51,730 bases of DNA from a virus. The position numbers and the translations under genes are program-made. Below, piece by piece: positions 14,106 to 45,398 of the stretch. The notes below the pieces were generated by a model. That model had not been told where the DNA came from. It made no database searches and worked only from the letters and a program-made list of their open reading frames with translations. The first letter of the stretch is position 1, and the number at the start of each line of letters is the position of its first letter. Location: positions 1-51,730 of the IMG/VR virus record IMGVR_UViG_3300025678_000004; one strand, written 5' to 3'.

Positions 14106-14116
14106 AGGTGAACATC

Positions 14117-16066
14117 ATGACAAATATTGTGAAGTTATGGAAAGAAAACCTGGACACCGCACACAAAGGCGAAATCATTGTATTGAAAGCAGAATACCCA
14201 AAGAAATCAAGTATAACAATCAACATCAATAACACACAGAAGGAATTATTTGATGAAATTGTAAAAGACCCGATACTCGCTGAAAATGCATTATATTCAG
14301 CGCTGATGGAAGGAAAATACATCCCGGGGTGGAATGGGTCAAAACACACAATTTCAATCAGATTCATCGGGTTCCCACAAAGAATCAAAGTAAAAGACCT
14401 GAACTCAAAGCACCTGGAAAAATTCACATCCATGAGAGTTGTCGTAAAGAAAATAAACAGTGTAAAACCAAGACTTGTGCATGCAGCATTCAAATGCAAC
14501 GCCTGCAAGGAAAAGATCACATATGTCCCTGTGGAAGAGGATGAAGTCGTTCCTCCGTCTGAAAAATGTCTCTGTGGTGGTAAATCATGGAGGTTCCTGC
14601 TCAGATCATCAATCAAAAAAGACTACCAGATCATCCAGGTCCAGGACCCTGCCGAAGACGGAGGAAGTTCAAAACCAGAGGTTCTCACAGTCAAACTCCT
14701 GGACGATTTATGTGGTAAAGTCCAGCCAGGAAACATCATAGTTATCAACGGTATCTATAGAGGCCAGCAGAAAAAACAGTCGGCCACATTAGATACCTAT
14801 CTGGATGCAAAATCCATTGAGATAACAAACAAAGACTTCAGCAAAATTGAAATCACAGAGGATGAAATTCGTGAATTCGAAGAACTTGCAAAAAATCCAG
14901 ATATATATGATATGTTATGGTCATCTATCGGATCAGTGGTCAAAGGATGGGAAGCAGTCAAACAAGCGATATTACTGCAGCTTCTTGGAGGGTGCGAGAA
15001 AATCACCGCGGATGGAGATCGCTTTAGGCCGGATTTCCACATCCTGTTATGTGGAGATCCATCCGTTGCTAAGTCAAAAATTCTCCGCTCTGCCTACAAC
15101 CTATGCCCCAGAGGTATTTATGCATCTGGCAAGGCTACATCAGCTGCTGGACTCACAGCGGCAGCCACAAAGGCATCAGACGGGGGATGGGAGATTGAGG
15201 CTGGTGCTGCCGTATTAGCAGACAAAGGCATGCTCATCATAGATGAGCTTGACAAAGTCGACAAGGAGGCAGTATCATCTCTCCATGAAATTCTTGAGGA
15301 ACAGATTCTCCATATCAACAAAGCAGGTATTAGTGCAGACCTTGCAACACGTGAATCCTGTCTTGCTGCAGCAAACCCGAAACGTTCACGATTTGACAAA
15401 TACCAGGACCTTGCATCCCAGGTTGCGTTCGCACCATCTCTTCTCTCACGGTTCGGTCTCATATTCCTCATGATTGACGAGCCGGACAAAACAAAAGACC
15501 GGGAGATTGCAAAGCACATCATCAACTCCCACCGGGGAGTGACTCATGAAAAACCAATTCCGATTGAGACCCTCCGGAAATACATTGCACATGCAAAACA
15601 GTCCTGTGAGCCGGAGATAACAGATGAAGCAGCACGGATGTATGAGGAGTATTATGTTAAAATAAGACATTCAAACGGAGAATCGACTATCCCTATAACA
15701 CCCAGGCAGATTGAGGATATCATCAGGATGTCAGAAGCCAGTGCAAAGACACGGCTGTCAAAATATGTTGAGCCGGTTGATGTCAGCCGTGCCATATGGA
15801 TATACGAACAGGCAATGAGAATGACTGCAACAGACCCGGGGACCGGGTCCATTGATGTGGATAAGATAACCGGAGGGATGTCATCATCAGCACGGGAAGG
15901 AATGGCAGAACTCAAGAAGTTGCGGTCTGAATTCTTTGAACAGTTCGAAAAATGGCCGTCAAAAAAGGAACTAAAAGATTATGCAATGCAGAAAGGAATG
16001 TCTGAATCATCAGCAGCATACCTTACCCGCGAATTGTGGAAAGAGATGGGACTGAATGCATATTAA
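14117..16066 (+). CDS. mcm: MCM replicative helicase
   Basis: Zn motif CNACKEK...CLCGG; Walker A LLCGDPSVAKSKIL; Walker B LIIDELDK; sensor AAANPKRSRFD; arginine finger LLSRFGLIF. AAGGTGA lies upstream of ATG 14117, and the tracked GTG 14108 lies inside that Shine-Dalgarno motif. Confidence 0.92.
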   Translation: MTNIVKLWKENLDTAHKGEIIVLKAEYPKKSSITININNTQKELFDEIVKDPILAENALYSALMEGKYIPGWNGSKHTISIRFIGFPQRIKVKDLNSKHLEKFTSMRVVVKKINSVKPRLVHAAFKCNACKEKITYVPVEEDEVVPPSEKCLCGGKSWRFLLRSSIKKDYQIIQVQDPAEDGGSSKPEVLTVKLLDDLCGKVQPGNIIVINGIYRGQQKKQSATLDTYLDAKSIEITNKDFSKIEITEDEIREFEELAKNPDIYDMLWSSIGSVVKGWEAVKQAILLQLLGGCEKITADGDRFRPDFHILLCGDPSVAKSKILRSAYNLCPRGIYASGKATSAAGLTAAATKASDGGWEIEAGAAVLADKGMLIIDELDKVDKEAVSSLHEILEEQILHINKAGISADLATRESCLAAANPKRSRFDKYQDLASQVAFAPSLLSRFGLIFLMIDEPDKTKDREIAKHIINSHRGVTHEKPIPIETLRKYIAHAKQSCEPEITDEAARMYEEYYVKIRHSNGESTIPITPRQIEDIIRMSEASAKTRLSKYVEPVDVSRAIWIYEQAMRMTATDPGTGSIDVDKITGGMSSSAREGMAELKKLRSEFFEQFEKWPSKKELKDYAMQKGMSESSAAYLTRELWKEMGLNAY

Positions 16067-17991: not shown

Positions 17992-18501
17992 ATGGAAATT
18001 GCATATGTAGTGGAAACTACAAACGGAACAACATGGAAAGCAACATGCTCCGACCCACATCTCGAAACAGAGGGGCCTGATATCCTGTCAGTAAGTAGGA
18101 GCATGGCAGAAAAGATTGAATCATGGATTGTGAATACATTCGGGACCCCGAAAAAAGTGGTGGTTGAAGTCCCGAAGATAAAAGCCAAAATAAAAGCAAA
18201 CATTGTTGTAAGGCCCGAAACTCCGCTGACGGAGTATACCCCGCCCGAACCGGTAAGGATTGAAAACAAGGTGTATGGTCCGTGTGCATATCTGTCTGAC
18301 GGGAAGGGGGTTCTCCCTGTCGGTGAATGCGAAGCCAGATCGATGGACCCTGCAGACACTCCAGGTATCAGGGTGGATGCTGATGGCATGTGCATGGCAG
18401 AGTTTGAAAAATGTACATATTACAAACCGCTGATGCAGATATCCGTGCAGGATGACGATGACTTCGAGGATGTTGATGACAACATCAATGAATATGAGTG
18501 A
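17992..18501 (+). CDS. Hypothetical protein with HicB-like N-terminal pattern and acidic tail
   Basis: MEIAYVVETTNGTTWKATCSDPHLETEGPDILSVSRSMAEKIESWI, with C-terminal DDDDFEDVDDNINEYE. ATG 17992 is preferred over the tracked GTG 17983. Confidence 0.45.
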   Translation: MEIAYVVETTNGTTWKATCSDPHLETEGPDILSVSRSMAEKIESWIVNTFGTPKKVVVEVPKIKAKIKANIVVRPETPLTEYTPPEPVRIENKVYGPCAYLSDGKGVLPVGECEARSMDPADTPGIRVDADGMCMAEFEKCTYYKPLMQISVQDDDDFEDVDDNINEYE

Positions 18502-19010
18502 CCATGCCATTTTCAAAACGAAAGACGCGTGTAAAAAACGCGACAAAAACTGTAGTGAATGGAACGGCGTTCTCATCAAAAGCGGAAGGGTACTATTACA
18601 CCGTGCTGCTTGAAAAACTAAAGACAGGAGAGATACAAAAAATAGAGTTGCAGATCCCGTTCGAACTCCAGCCCCAGTACAAGAAATGTCAGGCACACGG
18701 GTGTGATTTCATCTGGGTGAGACCGGGGGATGAGAAAGATCCAAATTACAAGCGGTATTATTCAGCAAAGACATGCCCAAAGTGCAACGCACCACTCAAA
18801 CTCCATCGCGAAATGTTATATGTCTGTGATTTTGTCGTTACTGATGCGTATGGAAAGAAGCATGTAATTGATGTCAAATCAAGTGCACATTTTCAGACCG
18901 AAGTCTTTAAACTGAAGAAAAAGATTTTTGAGTTTCGATATCCAGACAAATTGCTGGAAGAAGTTTATCCAAAAGTCCCAAAAGGATGGACGGGTGAAAA
19001 AGTTATTTAA
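18498..19010 (+). CDS. DUF1064-type PD-(D/E)xK nuclease (Holliday-junction-resolvase-like) with zinc-ribbon insertion
   Basis: NGTAFSSKAEGYYYTVLLEKLKTGEI and YVCDFVVTDAYGKKHVIDVKSS match the DUF1064 F.S..E and DF.v.d..g...v.DvK blocks. CQAHGC...CPKC is inserted between them. Confidence 0.55.
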   Translation: MTMPFSKRKTRVKNATKTVVNGTAFSSKAEGYYYTVLLEKLKTGEIQKIELQIPFELQPQYKKCQAHGCDFIWVRPGDEKDPNYKRYYSAKTCPKCNAPLKLHREMLYVCDFVVTDAYGKKHVIDVKSSAHFQTEVFKLKKKIFEFRYPDKLLEEVYPKVPKGWTGEKVI

Positions 19011-24457: not shown

Positions 24458-25075
24458 TTACAATTTATAATGCCCTTTTAACTGGCATATTGCAAGCCCA
24501 AGGCGGATTGATATGGTGTTTCCCTGACCTCCGATGATATTTGATGAATACCCGGTTATAAGCACCGGATATGCACGGGACGATAACAGAAGAATTAGCG
24601 GAGACTGCCTGCATTCCTCCTTAATAAGGGATTTTGTTGTTCTCAAATCCTCTATAATAATATCCCTGCTATAGGTCTGTTTTGTCTGCCCCTGTGTTCC
24701 AGTTGACATGGTTACCATTCCAAGCCCGTCAAACCACACTCCTGCTATGGTGATGGTTCCGGATTCAACAAACCCAATATCCCATCCTATCTGCAGTTCT
24801 TCAGGCAGTGGGATGAGTATGGGGGATGCAGTAAACCCCTTGTCAACAGACTGGATACCCCCGCGATAAATGCACGACGTGTCTGATGACTGCTCTGTTT
24901 CAGTGAGGTCTATCGCTTCAAAGGTGTAATCATTTACCCCTGCAACTTTGAACTGCCCCCTTACTTCAGGGTCGCTCACCCCATTTGCAGGGACAAACCC
25001 AAGTGCAAGCGTCCCTTCTTTTGATGCAGGATATTTCCCACTCTGCCATGTGTATTCATACCATCCTCCCGGCAT
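24458..25075 (-). CDS. Distal tail protein (Dit-like) by position
   Basis: 205 aa. The start overlaps the TMP stop (ATGA-type coupling), which is the canonical post-TMP position. Confidence 0.4.
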   Translation of the reverse strand: MPGGWYEYTWQSGKYPASKEGTLALGFVPANGVSDPEVRGQFKVAGVNDYTFEAIDLTETEQSSDTSCIYRGGIQSVDKGFTASPILIPLPEELQIGWDIGFVESGTITIAGVWFDGLGMVTMSTGTQGQTKQTYSRDIIIEDLRTTKSLIKEECRQSPLILLLSSRAYPVLITGYSSNIIGGQGNTISIRLGLAICQLKGHYKL

Positions 25076-28000
25076 CAGTAACTCACCTGCACACCGCTTG
25101 TTTTACCCATTGTCGTAAGCCATTGCACAAACTGCTGGAACAATGCATATGGGTCAGAGTTAGACATTTCAACTGATATCTGATTTATTGTTGGTTGCTT
25201 TAACTTTTCGTCTATTGATGTGAGTTTGTTTAGAATCGCTGTATCCTGCGGTTTTGTTGGTTCTGCCTCAAGCCGCTGTATCTCGCGGCCCTGCAACCAG
25301 TTGTATGTTCCTTTGAACACTTCTCCAAACAACCCGTATTTTCCTTCAAGCGGACGGTTTGCAATCTCGTGGGATTTTATGACTTCCCCGGCAAGCCCCG
25401 GGATCTCCCCCGATTCTATGTATTTCATAATGCCAGGAATTCCCCCGACTATATCAGATACAGCAGCACCGGCCATACCAAGCGGTCCCATCCCGGCAGA
25501 CAACGCTGTAGAAACCCCTACTCTTATACCGCCCTCAACCATTTCATTATCACGGAGTCCGGGGATATAGTTCGCCGGTGACAACGGTCCCTTTCCTCTT
25601 GTAACCGCATGCCCGACGGCCTGCCCGAAATCCGGTGCAACAAACCCGCCCAGAAACTGGGCGGTATATGGAGCACTTGCTGCAATAACATTGAACCCCA
25701 TCTGGGCTGCACCCGCAAGTGCAGCTGACTTTGCTATCTCAAGCGGGTCCCCGGATTCCATTCCCCCAAGGACGCCTCCAAGAAGGGTCATTCCAGGGAC
25801 CCCTTTCATTAGTTCCTTTCCGTATCCGATGATGCGCTCAGGAAGGGATTTTGGTTTTTCTGCACGGAGCCGTTCTTCTTCTTTTAATCCGGACTCGCGT
25901 TTCAACTCTTCCGGTCTGATCTCTTCCCTGCCTTTATCCATCATCTCCCGGTATCTGTCACGTGCCCGTGCCCGGCGTTCCTTCTCACTCTCAATGAGTT
26001 TGTCATCCCGGAGCCGGTCTCCTTCCTTTGGTTTCCCCGGTTCTGCTGCAGCCTCTTTTGGTTTGAACAGGTCTTTGAACCAGTCCCACATCCCTTTCAG
26101 GGTGTCAATTGCTTTCTGAAGAAGTCCCTTTCCGGCATCAAGAATCCCCCTGATTGTGTTCATAAGTCCCTGTGCAACAGCACCAAACCCCTGGGTCCAT
26201 GCATATATCCCTGCTACAGCAACACCAATCGGGATAAGCGGAGCAAGTCCACCCACAAGTCCAAGCAGTTGTGCAGTTGCAACGGTCCGGAGTGCCCTGA
26301 ACCCTCCTTCAGACACCCCACTGACCATCTGGTTCCCACGTTCAATGGTCCGCCTGAGCATCTCAATACCGCGTCCTGCAACGGCCCCTATTGCAAGTGC
26401 AGGTGCAAGTGGGGCTATCATAGCCCCCACCATCTTTGAGACCATTCCAAGGCCCCCTACGATGCTCTGGGCGATGTCTGTGGACATGATGGTACCATAC
26501 ATGCTCATGATGTTCCCGATGACACCACCCGCCCCTCCGATTATACCACCGTCAGCATAATGGGGAATATCGCGTTTTGATATGACAACCTCCCCTGGAG
26601 TGAGCATGGCAAGAACAGAATCGGTATTCCCTACTCCGGGAACCACACCTCCCCGGCTGAACCGTCTGGCCGGTTTTGTAACTGTGGTCTCCCCTGCTTT
26701 TACAGGGACGGCTGTTCCTTCAATGTTCACATAGAAATCCGGTTCCGGCTTCTCACCTGATGCAAGAAGGGTTCCTCTGCGAAGCATCCTCCCCCTGTAT
26801 GCCATTGTGGGTTCTGACTCTTCTGTTGTTGCAAGAGGAGCGGGCGTTGGTGGCTTTGGCGGAACGACCCGCTCTTTCATTACATTGACAAAATCGTTAA
26901 TGGCACTGGTCATATGCCTTATAGACTCCGGGATCTTTCCCATTGCCTTGAGCCACTGATATGTCTCATAAATGGTTTTTCCAATAACCAGTGCACCGAT
27001 TGCAAATATAGGGGGGAACTGGCGGACGATGTTTCCGATGTTTACCAGTCCTTTTACAACAGGACCTATATAGGGAATGATCGGCATCAGGAACATGTCT
27101 GAAATGTATCCGATTCCTTTGCCGATTGCTTCATGGGTCTTGTTATAGACCTTTGATGTCTGCCCGAATATACGCATGACGTGGGCTGCAATGAGGTATG
27201 ACGTGGTTGCACCACGGATAGACCTGAGATAGTTCTTCCGTGCCTGGTCCTCCTTCTCAAGCAGTTTCCAGTATCCTTTTGGTGCGGCAGATTCCCAGTC
27301 CATCCCGCTCCGTTCTGCTTCAAGTACCCGCTCTGAATACTGCCGCTCTTTTCGTTTCATCTGGATGGGGAGCCCTATGATAGGCAGCCGTTCTGCGATC
27401 CGCTGCCAGCCTTTCGGATGGGGGAGTTCACTCAGATACAGTTCACGGAACAGTTTCTCATAATCCGGTTCGGTTGGAGCACCTTCTTCTTCTGCAGCAA
27501 CAGCCGCCCGGCGGCTCTTCTTTGCACCACTGTCACCATACTGTGTGACCTGTATCTTAATACCATTAAACCATGACTCAAACTTTGACATCGTCGGCTG
27601 ACACAGGTCAACCCCGCGACATTTCCCTGATGGTCGTGGTTTTGCCGGGGATTTTCTGATTGCAGCATCAATATCATCAGAATTTATAATAGAATCGGGA
27701 ATCCCACGCGGGTGAGACGAGGGAAACAGCCAGTCTCCGGCACGAGGTTCTTTCTGTGGAGTTCCGGATGATGGTGGGGTTGACGCGGGGGATTTGCGCC
27801 TGAACTCCGGTCCAGGAACCGTTTTCGGAACAAGGGCCTTTTCAATAGTATTGAATTTGTCCGCGAACCGCGGAACAGATTCAAACGATTTCCCTGCCTC
27901 TTCGAGAATGTTTAACAGTGCTATGGAGTCATTCCATAACATCGTGTCAAGATTCTTCCCGGTGTTGAGCAGTTTCTGGTTAAACCCAATTGGTTTTAAG

Positions 28001-31000
28001 TCCTGATATATCTTCCCAAACAGGTCTATCGTTGCGGCATCATCCTCAACACCGCCCATCGGGGCACCGGCAAGCATTGCAAGAGACTTGTCATTCCATC
28101 CTGCTGATTCGAGTTTGGATATGATGTTCTTGATGACCGGGTGTACTCCGGGCCCTGATGCAGATTCCCAGAGTTCGTGAAGCCGTTCGGTGAAGACTGC
28201 AAGTCGTGACGGGTTTTTATCCCAGGTCTCGTCCGGTGTGGGTCCTACCGCACCATATTTCGGGAACACTTTAGACAACGCACGGGCATGCCCGGGTGTG
28301 GTTGCACCGATCCCCTGTCGTTCATACCGCTCTTTTGATACGATGTCATAGATGCTTACCCGCCGGGATGCAAGATCAAACAACCGCATTGCAGCTGCAT
28401 CTTCTGCATTGTCCATCCCTGCTCCTTTGACCGGGCGTGGACCGAACATTTCATTGTATTTTGCGAGTTTCTTTTTCCATCCTTCAAACCCCTTTACAAG
28501 GTCCATCTCATGCGCACCGAGCGTGCTTAAATCACGGGTGACATTAATGACAAATCCTTTGACAGAATCCTGGAAGAAGTCTGCATATGCTGCAATCTGC
28601 TCTGCGAAGTCTGCATCAACCTTGCTGGAGGTCTTAAAGTCCGCAATGGTTGGAACAAGGTTGCCAGTAGCATCCCGGATGAACCCGGCTATGTCAAGAG
28701 TTCCGGAATACTTGTCCCTGGTGTTTACAAACCGCTCTTCAATGAGACTCGGGACAAACCCCATCTGATCTACAAGCTCGACAAACCTGTCCGCAATATC
28801 TTTCCCTGTTTTGATAATATCATCAATGGAATGGAGCGTGCCCTGTAAATCTTTTGAAGGGGAAATATCAGGGAACTTCACGTGAGATGTGTCGATTTCA
28901 TACTTCTTCCCAAGCGCCTGTGCGGCATAATAGTGGGCGACACTCCCCACATGCCCATAATACTCCCCGCCGTTGTATACCTTCCCCAGATTTTTAATCT
29001 TGGTTACAGAAGGCCATATTTCTCCGGTGACCGGGTCAACATAATCATGTTCATCCGGTTGTGCTTCGCGGGTAACATTGCGGGCATGTGATGCAAGTGG
29101 GAGCGTCCCCTCGGCCAAAAACCGCAGATGTTTGTTTGGAATCACATCGAATCCTCCTCCCGGGCGAGACACCAGCAGTTCCGGCCCGGCTTCACCTACT
29201 ACTGCGTTTTCACCAGGTTTTAACTTTCCGCCCGTTGCAAGTGCACGGAACCGCATTCCGGCAAACTCTTTTGGAAGGGCCCCAGGATTATATCGTTCGA
29301 TAGTAATGTTTGATGGAATCTCCCCGTGGAACACTTTCATGAGGTATGAACCAAATGCCACTGAACCCGCCGGGCGGGTAGTCTTTGATGGAACCCATAT
29401 AATTTTGCATGGTTTCGTTCCGATGGATTCGATCAGTTTGTTCACCTGCGAAATCCCGGACGGGGACAGATACGCCTCATCAAAAAACGCAAGCACTTCA
29501 TCAGACGAGTTTATCACATCTGCCGTGGTGTAATCCTTCTGATACTGCTTCCCGCTTTTTCTGGAAAGCCATTCCACACGTGCCGGAATCTTGTACTGGA
29601 ACGTGCCGGTATGATGTGCCCAGTTGGATGCCTGGTATGCAGCACCAAAACTGGTATCGTTCAGTCCCTTGCCAACTTCGGTGGAGGTTATCATCACATT
29701 GTTCGGGTCCCAGTATTTGCTGAAGTACTTCCGCATGAACGGTTCGTTGTCCCATGACTTTGATCCGACAATACCAACCCGTTTCACCCCGGGGAGTTCG
29801 ACCTCTCCTTTGGCAACGCGTTTTACAATATCTTCAGTTTCCTGGGGGAGGTCTGCTATCTTCAGTCCGAACCTGTCACGGAACTTTGATACCACCCGCA
29901 TAAGGCGGTCATCCTGGGTAACGTGCTGATACAGTCCGCGAAGAGAGTGTTTTGGAGAGAATGGTTTTATCTCGTCTTTCTCAACCGCAATCTTCCGTTC
30001 ATACCGTTCAAGCCCGCGGGTATACGAATCAATCTCTGCCTTTAACTGTGCCTTGTCGGCACCATACGTCATGATAAGTTCGTCTGCCTTCTCAAACGGG
30101 ATACCGGCTTCATGGAACGCCCGGCCATAATACCTGCCATATCGTGAGATATAATTTGCACGGACATCTTCATGCTCGGTCATCCGTTCAAGATACCAGT
30201 CGTGGTATACCTGATGCAACTGGGACTGTGCCTCCCGTGCAGTTGCAGCAACCACATACGGGCTGTATAACCGGGTTGTATACTCAGTAATAAGATCCGG
30301 CCCAGCATCGATATATTTCCGGTACTTCTTCTCAAGTTCTTTTGACCAGTTTCCATACTCCTCTTCAGCGGTAGGACTTGAGAAATCGGCCATCTCAGAC
30401 TCAAGGTATTCAGCAGCGGATTTGAACGAGTACCCCCCTTCATCAGAGTCTTCCAGGTACCGTGGCAGATGTGTCCTGAAACTGTCACCAGACCACTTTG
30501 CACGGATTGTAGTGGGCTTGCCTATACCAGATATAGGGTATGATGAAATAATCGAATCCAGATACTCCTGTGACGCTCTGGTGAGAAGTCTGGGTCTTCG
30601 CCTAAGCCCCCCTCCCAGTCTGGCATCAGTACTCCTCCCTGTCTTCTTCCGTGCAAACAGGTGGGCAGCAGTCTGAACCTCGCCGACAAACTCTTTCATT
30701 GAGTCGTCAACAATATCGTGTGGGGATATACCAAGCCGTTTTAATGCAGTCTGGACTATCGGAGAGTTCATCCTGGACGGTGTTGTCTGATACTTCTCAA
30801 TTATTTCAAGTGCGTCAATGGTTTTTTGCAGGTCTTCTTTGCTTACCGGGGAGATGTATGCGTTGGTGCTGCTTACCTCCCGTTTCTTCATCCGTTTCAG
30901 ATCGTCTGCAAGAATGTCATCAAGACGCGGGGCAATATAACTGGTCAGGTTTCCTCCCGACCATTTATCAAAAAGATGTGCAATAACAATGTCACGGGCA

Positions 31001-31530
31001 GAAAGGATCTCCTTGTTTGAAAGGCTTTCCAACTCCTCTTTGGTAAGGAAAGACCCTAACTTACGACGGAGGGTTTTAGAGCCTACTCCTTTGAATCTGC
31101 CTGTCGTGCTGGTAAGGTAATCGGTGATACCTTCTACTATCCGGGGATTAACGTGGGGGAACTTCCGGCCGATATCACGTTTTATCTCGGCCATTGATTT
31201 GGGGTCAAGTACCCGTCCCCGGCCCACGGCCTGGGACTGGTAATGAATAACACGGGCAGCATCCTGCAACACCCCGCGGGGAAGTGTGATCGGGTCTCCC
31301 GGGTTTGTTGCAATCTCCTTTAACTGTTTCACAATAGAAACAGTCTCGCGAAATGCTGCCTGTCTTACAGGAGAGTCAGGATCACCACCGGAACGGATCT
31401 CATTCCGGATGACATCATACATCTTAATGACCTGTTCTTTTGACTCAACAGACAATTGAGAGAACTTCCGGCCAAAAACCCGGTATGAAATCTCATCCCT
31501 GCTTGGATACCTGACTGACATAGTGCCCAC
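25075..31530 (-). CDS. Tape-measure protein with embedded SLOG-like and PD-(D/E)xK nuclease modules
   Basis: 2151 aa in the canonical position after tube and chaperone. TMP hallmarks: GGKLKPGENAVVGEAGPELLV, GGVVPGVGNTDSVLAMLTPGEVV, and long Gly/Ala-rich hydrophobic helices. aa ~583-712 contain RVGIVGSKSWDN...SSDEVLAFFD. aa ~828-1000 contain PSVTKI, GSVAH, GTLDIAG, IADFKTS and QIAAYADF. An ATG at 31521 is an alternative start. Confidence 0.8.
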   Translation of the reverse strand: MGTMSVRYPSRDEISYRVFGRKFSQLSVESKEQVIKMYDVIRNEIRSGGDPDSPVRQAAFRETVSIVKQLKEIATNPGDPITLPRGVLQDAARVIHYQSQAVGRGRVLDPKSMAEIKRDIGRKFPHVNPRIVEGITDYLTSTTGRFKGVGSKTLRRKLGSFLTKEELESLSNKEILSARDIVIAHLFDKWSGGNLTSYIAPRLDDILADDLKRMKKREVSSTNAYISPVSKEDLQKTIDALEIIEKYQTTPSRMNSPIVQTALKRLGISPHDIVDDSMKEFVGEVQTAAHLFARKKTGRSTDARLGGGLRRRPRLLTRASQEYLDSIISSYPISGIGKPTTIRAKWSGDSFRTHLPRYLEDSDEGGYSFKSAAEYLESEMADFSSPTAEEEYGNWSKELEKKYRKYIDAGPDLITEYTTRLYSPYVVAATAREAQSQLHQVYHDWYLERMTEHEDVRANYISRYGRYYGRAFHEAGIPFEKADELIMTYGADKAQLKAEIDSYTRGLERYERKIAVEKDEIKPFSPKHSLRGLYQHVTQDDRLMRVVSKFRDRFGLKIADLPQETEDIVKRVAKGEVELPGVKRVGIVGSKSWDNEPFMRKYFSKYWDPNNVMITSTEVGKGLNDTSFGAAYQASNWAHHTGTFQYKIPARVEWLSRKSGKQYQKDYTTADVINSSDEVLAFFDEAYLSPSGISQVNKLIESIGTKPCKIIWVPSKTTRPAGSVAFGSYLMKVFHGEIPSNITIERYNPGALPKEFAGMRFRALATGGKLKPGENAVVGEAGPELLVSRPGGGFDVIPNKHLRFLAEGTLPLASHARNVTREAQPDEHDYVDPVTGEIWPSVTKIKNLGKVYNGGEYYGHVGSVAHYYAAQALGKKYEIDTSHVKFPDISPSKDLQGTLHSIDDIIKTGKDIADRFVELVDQMGFVPSLIEERFVNTRDKYSGTLDIAGFIRDATGNLVPTIADFKTSSKVDADFAEQIAAYADFFQDSVKGFVINVTRDLSTLGAHEMDLVKGFEGWKKKLAKYNEMFGPRPVKGAGMDNAEDAAAMRLFDLASRRVSIYDIVSKERYERQGIGATTPGHARALSKVFPKYGAVGPTPDETWDKNPSRLAVFTERLHELWESASGPGVHPVIKNIISKLESAGWNDKSLAMLAGAPMGGVEDDAATIDLFGKIYQDLKPIGFNQKLLNTGKNLDTMLWNDSIALLNILEEAGKSFESVPRFADKFNTIEKALVPKTVPGPEFRRKSPASTPPSSGTPQKEPRAGDWLFPSSHPRGIPDSIINSDDIDAAIRKSPAKPRPSGKCRGVDLCQPTMSKFESWFNGIKIQVTQYGDSGAKKSRRAAVAAEEEGAPTEPDYEKLFRELYLSELPHPKGWQRIAERLPIIGLPIQMKRKERQYSERVLEAERSGMDWESAAPKGYWKLLEKEDQARKNYLRSIRGATTSYLIAAHVMRIFGQTSKVYNKTHEAIGKGIGYISDMFLMPIIPYIGPVVKGLVNIGNIVRQFPPIFAIGALVIGKTIYETYQWLKAMGKIPESIRHMTSAINDFVNVMKERVVPPKPPTPAPLATTEESEPTMAYRGRMLRRGTLLASGEKPEPDFYVNIEGTAVPVKAGETTVTKPARRFSRGGVVPGVGNTDSVLAMLTPGEVVISKRDIPHYADGGIIGGAGGVIGNIMSMYGTIMSTDIAQSIVGGLGMVSKMVGAMIAPLAPALAIGAVAGRGIEMLRRTIERGNQMVSGVSEGGFRALRTVATAQLLGLVGGLAPLIPIGVAVAGIYAWTQGFGAVAQGLMNTIRGILDAGKGLLQKAIDTLKGMWDWFKDLFKPKEAAAEPGKPKEGDRLRDDKLIESEKERRARARDRYREMMDKGREEIRPEELKRESGLKEEERLRAEKPKSLPERIIGYGKELMKGVPGMTLLGGVLGGMESGDPLEIAKSAALAGAAQMGFNVIAASAPYTAQFLGGFVAPDFGQAVGHAVTRGKGPLSPANYIPGLRDNEMVEGGIRVGVSTALSAGMGPLGMAGAAVSDIVGGIPGIMKYIESGEIPGLAGEVIKSHEIANRPLEGKYGLFGEVFKGTYNWLQGREIQRLEAEPTKPQDTAILNKLTSIDEKLKQPTINQISVEMSNSDPYALFQQFVQWLTTMGKTSGVQVSY

Positions 31531-31673: not shown

Positions 31674-32075
31674 TTACTTCTTGCGAAAGTCACCTATCTT
31701 TTCTTCATTCTTCTCGATGCCTTCATACATCGCGTTGAAGACCCCCCAGAACTTCCCGGTCATCGTATCGTAGTATTCCCAAAACTGTGGCGTGTTAAAT
31801 GGAGCTTCAAGACACAACTGAGCAGCAATCTTGTACGCATCTGCTTCTATGTCAGAAAAGCGGAGGTCCTTCTCTTTCCGGGTTCTGTTCTGTTCGTAAA
31901 AGTATCTGACTTCACGGGGGAACGCAGCAACAACCTTTATCGGAACTCCTGCAAGATCGAATAGAAGGTGCCGTTCCTTCTCGTTTTCAAGTATCTTCTG
32001 GACAAGTTCGTTACTTTCAAGCTCTTTCAGTTCAAACTCCTTCAGTCTTGAAAGCAGGTCTTTCTTTTCTGCCAT
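31674..32075 (-). CDS. Tail assembly chaperone (by position)
   Basis: 133 aa, acidic and helical, between the tube genes and the TMP. A TATA-like TTTTTATATTT lies upstream. Confidence 0.5.
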   Translation of the reverse strand: MAEKKDLLSRLKEFELKELESNELVQKILENEKERHLLFDLAGVPIKVVAAFPREVRYFYEQNRTRKEKDLRFSDIEADAYKIAAQLCLEAPFNTPQFWEYYDTMTGKFWGVFNAMYEGIEKNEEKIGDFRKK

Positions 32076-32122
32076 ACATTAGATAGATGGCAGTAAATAT
32101 AAAAAAAGAGTTTGTTTGTTTT

Positions 32123-32692
32123 CTATACCTTGACCCACGAATCGTTTGTAGTCGTGCGTTTGTATGTGGTAACATACACCGATTTCCCTGTTCCACTAAG
32201 GTTACGCGAGATAAACTCGTTCTCTTTCATCTCATACGGAACAGACTCGAAATACACGTCTGATGCCACCAGTACAACCTTACGGAGTGCATCCGTTTCA
32301 AGCATCTCCATTGTGATGTCAAACCGTGCAACTTTGTTCTTCCATTTTGGGTCATTGATATTCGCACGGGTAACCGGACTTGCCGGATCATACCGGCCAA
32401 GCAGAACCCCTTTCAGAATATGGTCAGAATCGGGGTTCCACATAGCCACTTCCACGCTCACATCCACATTCAGCGAGTGCTTGGCGACTGCAGCACGGGT
32501 AACCCGTTCCATACCATAGAGGGTAACATGTTCAAATTTCGGGATAATCGAAATCCCTTTTAATGCAGCAACTTCTACAGTTGCCGTCGGTTGTGATGGG
32601 TTAATGTTTGCTCCCTGATAAGAAGCAACAGTCATCGTCATTGTACCATAGTTGGCAAAGAATGCACTACGGCCGTTATATGTATCTGCCAT
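32123..32692 (-). CDS. Major tail (tube) protein, paralog 2
   Basis: 189 aa, clearly homologous to 32704..33210. Shared blocks: MAD.Y.GR.AFFANYGTM, GMERVTRAAVAKHSL, WKNKVARF, DVYFESVPYEMKENEFISRNL. Confidence 0.65.
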   Translation of the reverse strand: MADTYNGRSAFFANYGTMTMTVASYQGANINPSQPTATVEVAALKGISIIPKFEHVTLYGMERVTRAAVAKHSLNVDVSVEVAMWNPDSDHILKGVLLGRYDPASPVTRANINDPKWKNKVARFDITMEMLETDALRKVVLVASDVYFESVPYEMKENEFISRNLSGTGKSVYVTTYKRTTTNDSWVKV

Positions 32693-33847: not shown

Positions 33848-34597
33848 TTATATCCCCTGTGATAACAACAACCTGCGGTATCGGTTCAGTTCGTTCACAA
33901 TGTCTTCTGGGATATAATATGCATCCTTGTGCGGGGTCTTATTGATATCATACATCTCCACATAATCACGCACCCCTACGTTCCGGATAGTCCCTGCCTG
34001 CTGGAACTTCAGTTTCTCTTCAAGATTTATACGGATAATCCGCAGCACAATCTGCTGGATTTCGCGGAACTGAGGGGATGAGTCCGGATACCCGGCAACA
34101 TATTCGATCTTAATGTTCCCAAGCCCTGCAGGGGGGACCCGGTTCAGACACACATATGTCAGTTCATCCTGGGTTACTGTATACCAGTCTCCCCCGGTAG
34201 GGCCGACTTTCACAAGCGGTATCCAGGCATCAACCCATTGCGACGGCCTGATTGCAACAGAAGAAACAGATATGCACGGTTCAGACAACACAAAATCATA
34301 TGACGACCGACCCATCGCCGCCGGCCCTCCCGGGGTCATCCACGACAGATATGTGTCAAGAAACTCCACTTCTCCGGGAGAGTTCCGGAATTCTATCTTT
34401 GTATGTTCATCGAATGTAGACACTCCGCAATACCGGTGCACCATCTGTTCAATCCGGGGAATGAGATCATTTGTGCAGTAATCCTGCCACTGGGAAGCGG
34501 TCATTATAAATGACCCCTGTTTCATGTCCTCGGCACCGAACCCGGTAAACGCCTCTACATCGAGTATGGAAACATATGACATATTACGTAATTGCAC
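33848..34597 (-). CDS. Head-tail connector/adaptor-like protein
   Basis: 249 aa. The N-terminal YVSILDVEAFTGFGAED...IEQMVHRYCG resembles the gp6-like connector N-terminal pattern. The position fits. Confidence 0.4.
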   Translation of the reverse strand: MQLRNMSYVSILDVEAFTGFGAEDMKQGSFIMTASQWQDYCTNDLIPRIEQMVHRYCGVSTFDEHTKIEFRNSPGEVEFLDTYLSWMTPGGPAAMGRSSYDFVLSEPCISVSSVAIRPSQWVDAWIPLVKVGPTGGDWYTVTQDELTYVCLNRVPPAGLGNIKIEYVAGYPDSSPQFREIQQIVLRIIRINLEEKLKFQQAGTIRNVGVRDYVEMYDINKTPHKDAYYIPEDIVNELNRYRRLLLSQGI

Positions 34598-38634: not shown

Positions 38635-39660
38635 TTAAGCCTCCAGAGCATCAAGATTTGATAAGAACGAATTATCCACCCTGCCAAGCGGGTTTCCTTC
38701 CATATCCAGGATAACGACATGGCCGCCTTTCCTGATAGTCTCGCTTCCAAAAGCTTCAATCGTCTTTTCCATTTCAGCAATCTTGGCATCATATGCCTTT
38801 TTCACTTCCGCAATGGCAAGATCAATCTTCGCTTTTACGACAAGGTCAAGAACGGATTCAAGGTTTGCTTTTGTAATATACTGCGATGCATCTTCCTTTA
38901 CAGGTTCCGGCTCCTGCACCGGTGCATCGCCAGACTTTTTCAGAAACTCAACAATATCAGAAATTCCTTTCTTCACTTCGTCAATCTCACTCTTAATGAG
39001 AGCGACGTCCTGCACCACAGGTTCCAGTTCAGACTTTACAACCACACCGTCAGTAGAAACGGTAGGTTCAGTACCGGAATCAACATGGTCCTGCTGATCA
39101 GCATTTGGAGCCATACTAGTATCAGGGAACGCTGCCTTTATTAACTCAACTGTTTTTTGTTCAAACTCCTCGCACAAATCAGGGGAAAACGACTTTGCTA
39201 TTTTTATATATGACCCCGGGTTTATCGCATTGTCACTACAGAGCGTAAACGACCAAAGCCGGATTGCCTTTGTAACACACGGAGACGTGCGTTCATGCGG
39301 CGCAAGCCGGCATTCATCAGACGCCATTGTGCGGACGCCATAGATTGAAATCCGGTTTAACTTTCCTTTCTCGATCTGCTCCCACACGTCATGGGTATCC
39401 CCGTCATCAGGAATCTTTGCCTTAAAATACGTGTCTCCCACTTTCGCATTTGGGTCATAATCCGGATGATTCTCATGTAATATCGGGTCCCCCGCTTTCA
39501 GAACACGACATTCCGTAACAAACCCGATTGGCCGCTCGGTATGCATCAGATGCAGAATAGGAATCTTCAAAAACAATGGAATGGCCTTTTCCATTGCTTC
39601 AGAGGTTATCAGTTCATTCTCACGGTCAACTATCGGGGAGGTCGCAATCCCAGATATCAT
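38635..39660 (-). CDS. Prohead protease (HK97/S78-like) fused to a coiled-coil scaffold domain
   Basis: GIATSPIVDRENELITSEAMEKA, ILHLMHTERPIGFV (His) and KLNRISIYGV (Ser) fit the HK97-protease blocks. The C-terminal ~170 aa are charged coiled coil. The start MISGIATSP (39660) is preferred over the tracked 39819, which overlaps the upstream gene by 194 nt. Confidence 0.7.
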   Translation of the reverse strand: MISGIATSPIVDRENELITSEAMEKAIPLFLKIPILHLMHTERPIGFVTECRVLKAGDPILHENHPDYDPNAKVGDTYFKAKIPDDGDTHDVWEQIEKGKLNRISIYGVRTMASDECRLAPHERTSPCVTKAIRLWSFTLCSDNAINPGSYIKIAKSFSPDLCEEFEQKTVELIKAAFPDTSMAPNADQQDHVDSGTEPTVSTDGVVVKSELEPVVQDVALIKSEIDEVKKGISDIVEFLKKSGDAPVQEPEPVKEDASQYITKANLESVLDLVVKAKIDLAIAEVKKAYDAKIAEMEKTIEAFGSETIRKGGHVVILDMEGNPLGRVDNSFLSNLDALEA

Positions 39661-40285
39661 CCTCCGGCCCAAACTCCTGACTTGCCCCGTCAACAGTAAG
39701 GGTTCGCGGGATTTGAAGAGGTGGTTTTGGCTGTTGTCCTGGCCTGTGCCACAATCGCGGGTCATAATATAAATCAAGCTGTAATGGGAAATAACAGCTT
39801 GGGGAAATGTGTTTTGCAACTGCCCACATCAGATACCCAATCCGGTCCCGTGTATACGGATTCCCACAATAGAGGCTCACTAATATCTTCAGAACATTGA
39901 GCCACCCTCTGTCATAGACGTTGTTATGATCCGAGTACATAGACGTGATATTGAGCACCTCAAGCAGAATCATAACATTTGGATCACGACTCACCTGCAT
40001 GCATTCTTCATAACTCTCATGCCCACAATACACTGAGTTATATTTGTCAAGTATCTCTGATGATATCTCAACATCAGCAATCTGTTTTAAAATCTCAAGC
40101 TGCTCAAGAAACTGCGGAACAGTCTCCATATTTTCAGGGTCTTTCACCTGACCCGGTTTATACATCAGATCCTTGTACAGATCCTTCTCAGCAAGCATCA
40201 TATCAACAGTCAGCTTCTGCCCTGGTGGTGACCGGGGAGGATGGTTCTGTTTCCCGCCTTTCGGCGGTTTTGGTCGCTTTACCAT
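39626..40285 (-). CDS. Hypothetical protein (basic, Pro-rich N-terminus)
   Basis: 219 aa starting MVKRPKPPKGGKQNHPPRSPPGQK. It belongs to the head-module operon. Confidence 0.5.
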   Translation of the reverse strand: MVKRPKPPKGGKQNHPPRSPPGQKLTVDMMLAEKDLYKDLMYKPGQVKDPENMETVPQFLEQLEILKQIADVEISSEILDKYNSVYCGHESYEECMQVSRDPNVMILLEVLNITSMYSDHNNVYDRGWLNVLKILVSLYCGNPYTRDRIGYLMWAVAKHISPSCYFPLQLDLYYDPRLWHRPGQQPKPPLQIPRTLTVDGASQEFGPEDDIWDCDLPDS

Positions 40286-42616: not shown

Positions 42617-42849
42617 ACCTGAATAAACGAAACCGAAGTGCCAACAAGCAAAGGCTCAATATCAACCGCACCAGGGTTGGATGAAACCAACCCCAAACAA
42701 TCCAAGTCGTCTGAAACCCCAATGTAATTAAAAGCGCCAGATTCTCCTGGTGTATGATACATCACATCGGAAATCAACATCGACTCTTCTAAAATTACAC
42801 GATTTGTTGAATATGGAAAATATGTCCCAAATCTACGTATAAATCTCAT
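42613..42849 (-). CDS. Hypothetical small protein
   Basis: 78 aa from MRFIRRFGTYFP. The ATG overlaps the stop of the S8-fibre gene (ATGA). Confidence 0.45.
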   Translation of the reverse strand: MRFIRRFGTYFPYSTNRVILEESMLISDVMYHTPGESGAFNYIGVSDDLDCLGLVSSNPGAVDIEPLLVGTSVSFIQV

Positions 42850-45398
42850 ACTAAAACATACACCCCCGTCACAGTTAAGCATTCCGCATTTCCATTTCCA
42901 CCAACATCTGTGGAAACTTCAATTGAAGCACCATATGGAACATTATAATTGGCTGTAGAAATGTCAACAACCGTGTCAACCCATGCGGAGTCGGACGTTC
43001 GTCTCCCGGCATTTGAGTTCGCCGTGCATACCGGCAACCCATTTACTAACAAATTTATTGCCGGTTGTGTAGCACCGGTATCCCCGGCATTACATACATG
43101 CGATATCTGGACCAGCTTCGCATCGCCAAGCATCCATCTAAATCGCGTTTTCATAAAATGTCGGAGCAAATTTGTTCGAGCCTCACCATTAAACACCCCA
43201 TTTATATACAAATCGACATGTGCAACCCGGCTTGCATCACACACTGCAAGTTCCTGTATCGTTCCAGACAACGGTGCTCCTGCAATTCCAATCACACTTG
43301 ACGTCAGATCACGGATTATACCATAATACCACACCCCACCAATCTTGTACTTTATCCCCATGCCTTTCTGGAGAACAGAGGTAAGATTTGCAACAGTTGT
43401 TATAGATGATGTGCTCGCAGGAGTTGCAACATACTGAACCGATGCAACCCGCAACCAATAATTCACCTGGGTCCCAGTAAACTCAAGAAACGCATTCCCC
43501 CCTGCATCCTGGGTCATATTAATATTTATTCCGCCTCCGGCAGGGGCAACAAGCTTGTTCAGAAGATAGTCCGCAGATGCATCCCCACTATATATCTTCG
43601 CTTTCCCACCAAGATCCGCCGGGGTATATATCGTCGGTTTGTTCCTGATGAATGCATCAGAATTTACATCCGTTTCATTCCAATCGGCCTGAACATTCTT
43701 TTCAGCATCAGAAGGAGCATGCTGACTCGTCGCATGATCGTATGCAAATTTCCCACGATCCCCGCGGTATGCAGTATCACTCGTCTCCCCAAGCGTTGCA
43801 GGAAACGTGTTCGGCTTGTCTATGATGTTCCCCCAGCACACCGATGAAGAACTGTTCAGGATAATATCATACGTAGTTTCATCACGCCACACAAGCCAGT
43901 CACCAGGAAGAACTCCGGTCTCACCAATATACCCGGCATGAGAAATAACATAATATTTCCCCTGCTCACCTGGAGGCAGAGGGTTTGCAGGATTATAAAG
44001 CCCGGCATATGTTAACGCCCCAACCACGCTCGAAGGGAGATAGTCAGATTTTATTTTCCCTGCAGAATCTAGAATTGAAAGCGAAAACTCGTGATTATTT
44101 AACGTGAGCCCGGTACCTGCGGTATACCCCTCAGAATCTATCTTTGCCCACACACCGCCTTTTCTGGCATAATACTCATCCGTAGCAACATCCCGCACCG
44201 CACACTGCTTTTTAATTCCAAGAACGACCGTGGGGTCATCTATAAGCCCGGACAACGCCTTATATGCATTCACGCGGCCACCGGTTGCACATTTCCCGGA
44301 CAATGCCGGGATGATATCAACACCATTCAATATCCGTGTCCGTATCTGCTGGGCTGTCAGTTCCGGGAATGCCCCTTTCAGAAGAACTGCAATTCCAGTA
44401 ACCATCGGAGCAGCCATTGACGTGCCGGACAACCACACATATGAGTTCCCGGTCAGTGTACTGCAGATATTTGTACCCGGAGCAGCTACATGAACACTCG
44501 CAGCACCATAGTTAGACTGAGCATTTAACTGATCCTTGTTATTGGTATTACAAACCGAAATGATATTATTAAATCCAAGAGATGCTGGATATACCGGGGT
44601 CGAATCATTGTTATTTGCATCATTTCCTGCAGCACACACAAACAGCACCCCAGGCATACTCGCAATCTTATCGGCAACCGCCTGAGAGAACGAATAACTC
44701 CCAAACGACATATTAACAATATGACACCCCATCATCTCAGCATGGTCAAGCCCATACAGCACAGAGGTATCTGTTGCCTGCATACTTGACCCAAGCGATT
44801 TTATCGGGTATATCCGGCATGACCATGCAACACCACATACTCCCTGCCCATTATTCCCTTTCGCTCCAATTATCCCTGCAACATGCGTCCCGTGATCCCC
44901 ATCATCCATCGGATCAGAATCCATGTTGTAAAAATCAAATCCATCCGCTTTTTTACAGTTATCAGACAAATCCGGATGATTATAATCAACCCCGGTATCA
45001 ATAACCCCAACCTTTACCGACGTGCTCCCAATCGGCTTTCCAGCCTCATACAGCAACCGCCATGCATACGGTGCACCAATATCTGCTCCGGCAGTCCCTC
45101 CGTTCTGCCCCTGGTTAAAGAGCCCCCACTGGTTCCCGGCCTGATAATACGGGTCATTCGGGTGGTATGGCGTCGGTAAAAACCCGGTATAAATGTGGTC
45201 GGGTTGTGCAAACTCAACCAGCCCCGATTTATTCAGGGCGTCAACCTCATCAAGTACAGGAGAATCCTCAAAGGAGATTACAGTAATATCTCCTATTGCA
45301 TCTACAATTTCCGCTCCAGCCACAACCGCACGGATATCATCTATAGACACCCCGGGCTTCAGTTTTGCAAGGAGCCTTCCTTCAACATATTCTGCCAT
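42846..45398 (-). CDS. Subtilisin-like (S8) serine protease fused to tail-fibre modules
   Basis: It has an I9-like propeptide at the N-terminus and the catalytic triad blocks VGVIDTGVDYNHPDL (Asp), DHGTHVAGIIGA (His) and SGTSMAAPMVTGIAVLL (Ser). The C-terminal ~450 aa carry fibre-type motifs (WGNIIDKPNTFPATLGETSDTAY, NSDAFIRNKPTIYT). Confidence 0.85.
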   Translation of the reverse strand: MAEYVEGRLLAKLKPGVSIDDIRAVVAGAEIVDAIGDITVISFEDSPVLDEVDALNKSGLVEFAQPDHIYTGFLPTPYHPNDPYYQAGNQWGLFNQGQNGGTAGADIGAPYAWRLLYEAGKPIGSTSVKVGVIDTGVDYNHPDLSDNCKKADGFDFYNMDSDPMDDGDHGTHVAGIIGAKGNNGQGVCGVAWSCRIYPIKSLGSSMQATDTSVLYGLDHAEMMGCHIVNMSFGSYSFSQAVADKIASMPGVLFVCAAGNDANNNDSTPVYPASLGFNNIISVCNTNNKDQLNAQSNYGAASVHVAAPGTNICSTLTGNSYVWLSGTSMAAPMVTGIAVLLKGAFPELTAQQIRTRILNGVDIIPALSGKCATGGRVNAYKALSGLIDDPTVVLGIKKQCAVRDVATDEYYARKGGVWAKIDSEGYTAGTGLTLNNHEFSLSILDSAGKIKSDYLPSSVVGALTYAGLYNPANPLPPGEQGKYYVISHAGYIGETGVLPGDWLVWRDETTYDIILNSSSSVCWGNIIDKPNTFPATLGETSDTAYRGDRGKFAYDHATSQHAPSDAEKNVQADWNETDVNSDAFIRNKPTIYTPADLGGKAKIYSGDASADYLLNKLVAPAGGGININMTQDAGGNAFLEFTGTQVNYWLRVASVQYVATPASTSSITTVANLTSVLQKGMGIKYKIGGVWYYGIIRDLTSSVIGIAGAPLSGTIQELAVCDASRVAHVDLYINGVFNGEARTNLLRHFMKTRFRWMLGDAKLVQISHVCNAGDTGATQPAINLLVNGLPVCTANSNAGRRTSDSAWVDTVVDISTANYNVPYGASIEVSTDVGGNGNAECLTVTGVYVLV

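Follow-up and report, generated by a model that had tools for sequence, protein, structure and literature searches.

A probable tail tape-measure protein with a RecB-family nuclease module and a SLOG-like module in a virus of likely archaeal host

What would a DNA-directed enzyme be doing inside the protein that measures out a viral tail? The question is raised by a 51,730-nucleotide stretch of DNA (positions 1 to 51,730 of IMG/VR record IMGVR_UViG_3300025678_000004; hereafter the window), a tailed-virus genome of about 52 kb in which a giant open reading frame (ORF) on the minus strand, 25075..31530, is predicted to encode a tail tape-measure protein (TMP) with two unusual modules in its N-terminal half. 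Tape measures are normally seen as rulers and membrane-channel formers, at most with wall-degrading domains. A preliminary description, made from the sequence before any database search, had proposed that this ORF carries a DUF2493/SLOG module and a RecB/Cas4-type nuclease as an insertion into a TMP. We regard the observation itself as real, with the nuclease call firm and the SLOG call made at fold level only, and we consider the functional account given below plausible.

The giant reading frame and its family

As the preliminary description had stated, the ORF is uninterrupted over 2151 codons from a GTG (ORF list). Gene callers start it at an ATG at codon 4, which gives 2148 aa, and the identical protein is called on the source contig (ENA ERZ764804 NODE_473). 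The samples relevant to the virus are ENA ERZ764804 and JGI 3300048839, 3300042808 and 3300021843. As stops make up ~3/64 codons, a reading frame of this length is not due to chance. Its layout, with the evidence for each part, is as follows.

25075..31530 (-): giant ORF, predicted tape measure; ORF list, colinear orthologues of 2096-2452 aa on independent contigs
29806..31530 (-): N-terminal region, aa 1-575; conserved, without recognisable family
29377..29808 (-): predicted SLOG-fold, Rossmann-like module, aa 575-718; AlphaFold2 (AF2) and Foldseek, divergent DUF2493/YAcAr/DprA-like
29170..29232 (-): linker motif GGKLKPGENAVVGEAGPELLV, aa 767-787; common to other tape-measure proteins
28447..29079 (-): RecB-family PD-(D/E)xK module, aa 818-1028; profiles and invariant motif residues
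28576-28740 (-): predicted catalytic core of the nuclease, aa 931-985; E932, D946, D964, K966, Q978, Y982
27796..28449 (-): conserved middle region, aa 1028-1245, with the PDETWDKNPSRL block; invariant columns
27631..27813 (-): Pro/Ser-rich linker, aa ~1240-1300, between the N-terminal and tape-measure halves; read from the sequence
25078..27591 (-): tape-measure-like C-terminal half, aa 1314-2151; phrog_58, phrog_991, hydrophobic segments
26584..26652 (-): second TMP-type motif GGVVPGVGNTDSVLAMLTPGEVV, aa 1627-1649; core invariant in orthologues, phrog_35029 matching aa 1611-1661

Direct matches to tape-measure families lie in the C-terminal half, where aa 1314-1823 match phrog_58 (E=1.4e-5) and phrog_991 (E=2.9e-5), both 'tail length tape measure protein'. 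In the same half lie hydrophobic segments (aa 1480-1499 and 1690-1780), blocks rich in Gly and Ala, a stretch of 100 residues of which 54% are charged, and GGVVPGVGNTDSVLAMLTPGEVV, which we take to be a common TMP motif. The linker motif points the same way. In an all-protein search with aa 540-1030 as the query against 1.84 billion representative proteins, 17 of the 25 matches lay outside the immediate family of the window protein, and 15 of these 17 matched the linker motif only; three of the five non-family linker-motif proteins that were scanned (P0014, P0016 and P0017) match PHROG tape-measure families (305 at 8e-12, 8892 at 8e-10 and 5493 at 7e-7).

Gene order provides further support. 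The capsid-module genes are followed by several small ORFs, the giant ORF, and then ORFs of 205, 760 and 1052 aa, an order that is the same in contigs L001, L003 and L015, that is, in every contig whose neighbouring genes were read.

31674..32692 (-): two small upstream ORFs, 189 and 133 aa; position of tail assembly chaperones, same pair in L001, L003 and L015
19007..25075 (-): three downstream ORFs, 205, 760 and 1052 aa; positions of distal tail, hub and fibre, syntenic in L001, L003 and L015

The tail-module neighbours of the giant ORF gave no PHROG or family match, so that the slot is defined by order and size, and it is from position that the upstream pair would be tail assembly chaperones and the downstream trio distal tail, hub and fibre proteins. 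Between the capsid genes and the giant ORF the window has no gene of sheath size, and because of this and the flanking order the ORF would occupy the tape-measure slot of a non-contractile tail. It is also the only tape-measure candidate in the window. From profile matches, motifs and gene order together, we accept the assignment as a probable tail tape-measure protein, the direct matches being modest; the placing in the tape-measure slot and the TMP-like C-terminal part that the preliminary description had proposed both hold.

The family is small. At E<1e-30 the all-protein search returned eight clusters, comprising the window protein, six proteins of 2096-2452 aa and one of 807 aa, with the relatives located on five viral contigs and one contig from a metagenome-assembled genome (MAG). 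Family members are colinear over their whole length at 36-57% identity. All five distinct relative contigs that were checked, which come from different samples, carry intact ORFs of 2097-2456 codons with the same order of motifs and modules, in keeping with the preliminary claim that the modules are not fused neighbouring genes. All complete family members retain both the SLOG-like and the nuclease module. The 807-aa member (P0006; ENA ERZ22666135, a 3143-bp contig) has its ORF broken exactly at the VGE.GPE linker motif, with a new ORF beginning at the next base after the break. This is probably a frameshift, real or artefactual; if it is not a sequencing error, the ORF may have split naturally, into one gene for the cargo and another for the tape measure. 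The MAG contig (L004; JBAZDQ010000058.1, 8.7 kb) is taken up almost wholly by a family tape-measure gene. Its assignment to a 'Bacteroidales bacterium' MAG is the only cellular label obtained for the family and probably reflects mis-binning of viral DNA. A word-indexed protein search, with the single sequence and with the alignment, returned no relatives of the family, and a tblastn search of 50,697 phage records with the whole protein gave no match at 1e-5.

In the orthologue alignment, the SLOG-like and nuclease module regions are conserved to the same degree as the tape-measure half. Conservation extends to the 575 residues N-terminal to the SLOG-like module, which hold many invariant columns (44-62% identity to orthologues over aa 1-200) and are not assignable to a family, having no match in Pfam, PHROG, NCBIfam or PDB. 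The middle region, aa 1028-1245, likewise has no match in PDB or Pfam, and PDB profile searches with family alignments of both modules and of the N-terminal, middle and tape-measure regions gave noise only. The least conserved stretch within the N-terminal 1800 residues is the Pro/Ser-rich linker, at 22% identity.

The reading of the modules as an insertion into a TMP is not supported. Scans keyed on the C-terminal half recovered only the same five viral contigs and no module-less relative, and because no relative without the modules was found, an insertion is unproven. The bracketing by TMP motifs on which that reading relied was also partly misplaced: as GGKLKPGENAVVGEAGPELLV lies between the SLOG-like module and the nuclease, and not upstream of both, only the nuclease is bracketed by TMP-type motifs. 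In the family as sampled by sequence, the two-module architecture is ancestral.

The nuclease and SLOG-like modules

The motifs quoted in the preliminary description are all present at, or within a few residues of, the positions it gave, and they are invariant or close to invariant in seven orthologues.

aa 584-595: RVGIVGSKSWDN, SLOG-like module
aa 675-684: SSDEVLAFFD, SLOG-like module
aa 708-713: CKIIWV, SLOG-like module
aa 840-845: PSVTKI, nuclease module
aa 862-866: GSVAH, nuclease module
aa 931-934: EERF, nuclease module
aa 943-949: GTLDIAG, nuclease module, with D946
aa 962-968: IADFKTS, nuclease module, with D964 and K966
aa 978-985: QIAAYADF, nuclease module

With the segment aa 818-1028 isolated, the best match was to phrog_298, 'exonuclease' (E=7.7e-13), with phrog_69 and phrog_466 weaker. 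Pfam PDDEXK_1 was found in three of the seven orthologues, two of them above the gathering score (P0007 and P0008, at 25.1 and 25.3 bits against a cut-off of 22); the window sequence itself fell below the reporting level for this family. A profile of the seven orthologous modules was aligned by hhalign with P0021, a stand-alone protein of 236 aa that itself matches phrog_298 at 6e-29, and the alignment (Prob 97.4, E=1.6e-11) places the IEE/IEK, GT.D, D.K and Q..AYA motifs in register. The catalytic motifs follow the expected order of a helix acidic residue, D, (D/E)xK and QxxxY, and E932, D946, D964, K966, Q978 and Y982 are invariant in the seven orthologues, whose modules are 26-77% identical; the preliminary description had let its proposal stand or fall with the conservation of such residues. 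As the profile E-values (8e-13 and 1.6e-11) are combined with invariant catalytic residues, a chance resemblance is excluded. On these comparisons, aa 818-1028 is firmly predicted to be a RecB-family PD-(D/E)xK nuclease with its active-site residues intact.

Cas4 proteins are defined by four conserved cysteines that hold an Fe-S cluster. Because there is no cysteine anywhere in aa 801-1000, the module is not filed as Cas4, and of the proposed RecB/Cas4-type nuclease the RecB-family part, with all catalytic motifs, stands and the Cas4 part is rejected for lack of the conserved four-cysteine set. An intein or homing endonuclease was also ruled out, the splicing residues being absent and the nuclease class wrong. 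A comparison of the module profile with the single sequence of phage D29 gp69 by hhalign, which is insensitive in this form, was not significant. In the 50,697 phage records the module found weak matches in stand-alone exonuclease or helicase genes only and in no tape measure, and the window holds no second copy of either module elsewhere.

The SLOG-like module (aa 575-718) is visible mainly through predicted structure. Pfam, NCBIfam, PHROG and PDB-sequence searches with the window module alone were silent. AF2 with the eight-sequence family alignment returned an alternating beta/alpha, Rossmann-like model with a predicted local distance difference test score (pLDDT) of 81.4 and a predicted template-modelling score of 0.78. 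Foldseek searches of this model against BFVD, a collection of predicted viral structures, gave 44 matches at E<1e-3 (best 2.2e-8; template-modelling (TM) scores 0.55-0.66), the top ones being DUF2493, 'YspA cpYpsA-related SLOG' and DprA-like proteins, including relatives of D29 gp61 and the DUF2493 protein of the archaeal virus HGTV-1. Against PDB the matches were weak and generic (best E=3e-3), with CARF domains, methylglyoxal synthase and pantothenate synthetase among them; the best PDB TM score was 0.59, to ShosA, which we take to be DprA-like. A CARF domain was considered and rejected, as the TM scores were only 0.36-0.40 for CARF compared with 0.55-0.66 for DUF2493 proteins.

Sequence evidence for the same fold is fainter. 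The isolated domain of orthologue P0008 matches Pfam YAcAr (PF10686, formerly DUF2493) at E=4.6e-4; the gathering score of PF10686 was not reached by the full P0008 protein (13.9 bits against a cut-off of 28.2), and the window module had no match to it. In tblastn, P0008 weakly matched genes annotated as DprA-like or 'GTP-binding domain', one of which is a Vibrio phage phi-pp2 gene also found by D29 gp61 at 6e-12. A profile-profile comparison with seven proteins of the D29 gp61 family was colinear over 92 columns and weak (E=0.002, probability 14%), and hhalign of the module profile against the D29 gp61 sequence alone was insensitive. Of the DUF2493 signature (GxR after strand 1, RGAD, W, AGxxRN and GT), the R, D, W, RN and GT survive in none of the eight tape-measure modules, which have an invariant polar set of their own (G-S, K, D, S-D, S). 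The predicted structure thus bears out a SLOG-type Rossmann fold, for which the preliminary description had proposed a check by Foldseek or AlphaFold, and the DUF2493 assignment falls with the replaced residues. We consider it essentially right that this module has a SLOG fold, at fold level only and as a divergent offshoot according to the model, and because it is divergent and its signature residues are replaced, a DUF2493 ligand or activity cannot be transferred to it.

Genome context and host

Outside the tail module, the following genes bear on the nature of the virus.

1516-3336 (-): portal
4157-5581 (-): large terminase, with the Pfam T4-type N-terminal domain
14108-16066 (+): complete MCM helicase with OB, AAA+ and lid domains
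33848-34597 (-): head-tail adaptor
38635-39819 (-): XkdF-like prohead protease

Viral relatives of the MCM helicase are 62-98% identical to it and lie mostly on ~30-50 kb contigs. Its nearest named cellular relatives, at <=40% identity, are euryarchaeal (Methanomicrobiales, Archaeoglobaceae, Thermoplasmatota, Methanocellales and Halobacteria), for which reason an archaeal host is likely. A scan of genome contigs for the host returned only the unreliably binned L004 and one weak match. One viral MCM relative, P0029 (1005 aa), has an extra PF14528 domain, presumably of LAGLIDADG type and so possibly an intein. The nearest annotated-phage relatives of the terminase include Thermus phages P23-45 and P74-26, which have exceptionally long tails and tape measures, and Halorubrum virus Hardycor1.

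Possible roles of the N-terminal modules

We lean slightly towards a reading in which the giant ORF encodes the tape measure of a probably archaeal tailed virus and the nuclease and SLOG-like modules are injected cargo that works on DNA ends. It builds on the domain identities, catalytic-residue conservation, single-ORF architecture and synteny established above. The protein would be made of two halves joined by the Pro-rich linker: the C-terminal ~840 residues would form an ordinary tape measure, with membrane-type hydrophobic Gly-rich segments, a charged coiled stretch and TMP motifs, and the N-terminal ~1300 residues a conserved chain of globular modules that includes the SLOG-fold domain and the nuclease. 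At 1.5 Å per residue, a ruler made of aa 1314-2151 alone would give a tail of ~125 nm, and one made of the whole chain a tail of ~320 nm. Tape measures occupy the lumen of the tail and are driven out before the DNA, and because they leave the lumen in this order, the modules may reach the host envelope or cytoplasm at genome entry as virion-borne cargo. We infer that the N-terminal half is in the virion and is ejected from it and that the nuclease is active, with the viral DNA as its substrate. It would resect the ends of the linear, terminally redundant genome 5'-3' as it comes in, which would allow the genome to circularise or recombine before host nucleases arrive, and the SLOG-fold module may serve as its nucleic-acid- or nucleotide-binding partner.

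A role at DNA ends is favoured because the nearest stand-alone relatives of the nuclease are phage recombination-type exonucleases, because the window holds no other copy of either module, and because the large terminase has a T4-type N-terminal domain. T4-type terminases package by the headful, giving terminally redundant, permuted DNA whose ends need resection and annealing. The N-terminal half of a tape measure is, in published tail structures, the part nearest the DNA end, which favours the same role. DprA-like SLOG proteins and Cas4-type exonucleases are moreover ordinary members of phage replication modules, as in phage D29, which encodes the DprA-like SLOG protein gp61 and the Cas4-type exonuclease gp69 as separate replication-module genes, and in ICP1 HelB a DUF2493 domain is fused to an SF1B helicase (bioRxiv 10.1101/671271), which also argues for a DNA-end role.

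Several points weigh against this reading. The PHROG matches to tape-measure families are modest (E ~1e-5), the DUF2493 signature residues are missing from the SLOG-like module, and the sole model that covers the nuclease, a single-sequence AF2 model of aa 540-1030, has a pLDDT of 35. The host domain is drawn from the MCM helicase alone, with euryarchaeal relatives at <=40% identity, and that the N-terminal half is present in the particle is something we infer. At least three copies of folded domains of 150-200 residues fit poorly in a siphovirus tail lumen of ~4 nm, and the cargo would need storage in an unfolded or staggered form or somewhere outside the tube. Viral DNA is also at risk from a nuclease beside it unless the enzyme is kept inactive. 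Finally, the evidence is equally compatible with processing of the virus's own DNA ends and with attack on host DNA.

The latter possibility leads to the main rival, an unlikely but substantial one, in which the modules are cargo for attack or counter-defence, much like 'polyvalent proteins': the nuclease would degrade host or competitor DNA, and the SLOG fold would bind or destroy nucleotide-derived immune signals, for example cyclic oligoadenylates or derivatives of ADP-ribose. One injected polypeptide that strings unrelated modules into a long chain would fit this, as would a variable module content: orthologue P0007 (L003 10001-17359) has ~250 extra residues (~740-990) between its SLOG-like module and the linker motif, in which HNHPSGEPSFSFAD occurs and which match RadC-JAB and Prok-JAB below threshold (E=0.02 and E=0.04, respectively), and a GNAT domain is present in P0011, an unrelated tape measure. 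RadC-JAB and GNAT are typical polyvalent-protein domains (PMC5512222, PMC7824862), and phage YAcAr-type SLOG domains are predicted to act on NAD+/ADPr signals (PMC7824862). A Tad2-like protein in L003 and L015 and a Lar-like restriction-alleviation protein in L015 count on the same side. However, library scans found no Macro, NADAR, Nudix or phosphodiesterase domain in the protein, Pfam, PHROG and NCBIfam scans detected none of the hallmark polyvalent domains (MuF, ArdC-N, Zn-peptidase), the JAB match remains below threshold at E=0.02, and the SLOG module is without the DUF2493 signature residues. Both modules are, in addition, fixed in complete family members, unlike the shuffled repertoires of polyvalent proteins. 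Somewhat less likely again is that the N-terminal half is cleaved off at assembly, for example by the virus's S8 subtilase or prohead protease, and never delivered, acting instead late in the producing cell (in DNA processing or host DNA breakdown) or as an assembly scaffold. Lambda gpH is proteolytically processed, and here a poorly conserved Pro-rich linker separates the halves, the structural module encodes both an 850-aa subtilase and an XkdF-like protease, and folded globular domains are a poor fit for the tail lumen. No conserved cleavage motif was identified in the protein, however, and a late-acting nuclease would need neither a fixed stoichiometry nor a place in the tail module. As the N-terminal half and the tape measure remain fused in every one of the five distinct relative contigs checked, at 36-68% identity, the physical linkage appears to matter.

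A ligand-gated injected nuclease, in which a SLOG sensor silences the nuclease in the virion and a cytoplasmic nucleotide switches it on, would remove the difficulty of keeping a nuclease next to the genome, and a Rossmann-type sensor fold does lie upstream of a PD-(D/E)xK nuclease in a single chain, a layout that parallels the CARF-nucleases Can2/Card1 or the SLOG-SIR2 protein ThsA. Among the top PDB fold matches are CARF domains, those of Sso2081 and Can2 (weak, E=3e-3 to 2e-2), and the invariant polar residues appear to sit at loops of ligand-pocket type when the sequence is read against the AF2 secondary structure, a placement made by eye. We nevertheless consider this arrangement quite improbable, as the modules are ~110 residues apart with a TMP motif between them (~360 in P0007), unlike compact sensor-effectors, the TM scores for CARF are well below those for DUF2493 proteins, and nothing points to dimerisation or to a ligand. 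A wider version, a virion-borne sensor-effector delivered through the tail before the DNA, whose SLOG module binds a host nucleotide or immune second messenger and either soaks it up as infection begins or uses it to unlock the nuclease in the cytoplasm, is improbable to a slightly smaller degree; cyclic oligoadenylate, an ADP-ribose derivative or NAD+ would be the candidate signals, and Can2/ThsA-like logic would be turned against the host. If this were true, tape measures of archaeal viruses would be a general vehicle for injected nuclease, GNAT and JAB enzymes. It is very improbable that the arrangement is an artefact, with neighbouring genes fused by assembly or sequencing error or motifs arising by chance. 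The break of P0006 at the linker motif on its 3.1-kb contig, with another ORF directly after it, could be taken in that sense, but on five distinct contigs from different samples the ORF is intact and its modules keep the same order, and this, together with the profile E-values and invariant catalytic residues of the nuclease, in practice refutes an artefact.

The preferred reading, of injected cargo working on DNA ends, draws support for its cargo component in general from the weak JAB-like insert of P0007 and the GNAT domain of P0011. The latter protein (2095 aa; L016 10001-16288 and L017 10001-16288) lies in a tape-measure slot, preceded by a Phage_tube_2 gene and a pair of small ORFs. At aa 281-375 it has a GNAT acetyltransferase domain that passes the Pfam cut-off (E=4e-7), and it also matches Prok-JAB faintly. 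Its contig is that of an unrelated tailed virus, and the GG.LK..VGE.GPE motif is all that P0011 has in common with the window protein. As such a domain is found in an unrelated protein, very long tape measures may more generally bear enzymatic cargo in their N-terminal part. The P0011 contig also encodes an MJ0330_N-type protein, a portal and a capsid protein.

Tape measures with enzymatic domains are known, including that of TM4 with its Rpf-like motifs, T5 Pb2 with its muralytic/fusogenic C-terminus, and TMPs with lysozyme or M23 peptidase domains. In these, as proposed here, the ruler of the tail lumen is the vehicle for a domain that acts when the tail fires, but the known enzymes attack wall or membrane and are mostly C-terminal and tip-proximal, whereas those of the window protein would be DNA- or nucleotide-directed and are N-terminal and head-proximal. 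Sle1-type TMP-derived effectors of contractile injection systems provide another case of TMP scaffolds with exchangeable functional modules (PMC13277306). No tape measure with a nuclease or SLOG domain was reported in the searchable literature, within a limited search that is not proof of absence; enzyme-bearing tail rulers are thus already known, and for a nuclease-bearing one we found no precedent as far as we searched.

Among other known systems, polyvalent proteins include nucleases among their domains and have MuF, ArdC-N and a Zn-dependent peptidase as hallmarks. Like the window protein they are very large, multidomain and thought to be injected with the DNA for early action, and they have JAB and GNAT-type modules, as in the related examples here; unlike it, they are not tape measures, and they have other hallmark modules in shuffled sets, whereas the module set here is fixed. 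They are scarce in archaea, with almost no archaeal examples >1000 aa (PMC5512222). Stand-alone phage RecB/Cas4-like exonucleases (PHROG 298, 69 and 466; D29 gp69) have the same E, D, D/ExK and QxxxY motifs, but are soluble replication-module enzymes, whereas this module is embedded in a structural protein and is without the cysteine cluster. DUF2493/YAcAr and DprA-like SLOG proteins (D29 gp61, the ICP1 HelB C-terminus) have the same predicted fold and are colinear through strands 1-4, with a similar first-strand motif (RVGIVGSxSW in the tape-measure modules, RVLVTGsRDW in the DUF2493 type), but the invariant R, the D of RGAD, W, RN and GT of bona fide DUF2493 proteins are replaced here. T4 gp2, an end-protector, and the Mu N protein are virion proteins that travel with the DNA ends. 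Like the cargo proposed here, they are stored by the genome end and act at the ends on entry, but they protect the ends, are neither nucleases nor tape measures, and have no sequence relation to the window protein.

If the preferred reading is true, the tail lumen would deliver DNA-directed enzymes at the first instant of infection, before viral gene expression, which would bear on the survival and circularisation of linear genomes at entry and on how archaeal viruses pre-empt defence, injected effectors being almost unknown in archaea. The storage of globular domains in or above a narrow tail tube poses a structural puzzle. As the nuclease and SLOG modules are small and separable, both could be studied in vitro without culturing the host.

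Some minor features of the window and its relatives complete the picture. The 74-aa Tad2-like protein (PF11195) is encoded inside the head module of two relative contigs (L003 1501-1725 and L015 1418-1642) and the Lar-type restriction-alleviation protein at L015 25975-26316; local blastp found no homologue of either in the window. An orthologue (53% identity) of a DUF1064 protein of L003 is encoded at 18498-19010 (+), just past the tail module and on the opposite strand. The 850-aa S8 subtilase lies in the structural module at 42846-45398 (-) and has a fervidolysin-like prodomain (E=4e-55); beside it, at 45399-48587 (-), is a 1062-aa protein with collagen triple-helix repeats and DUF2793, and these two genes, unusual for a virion module, might serve to process virion proteins or act at the host surface.

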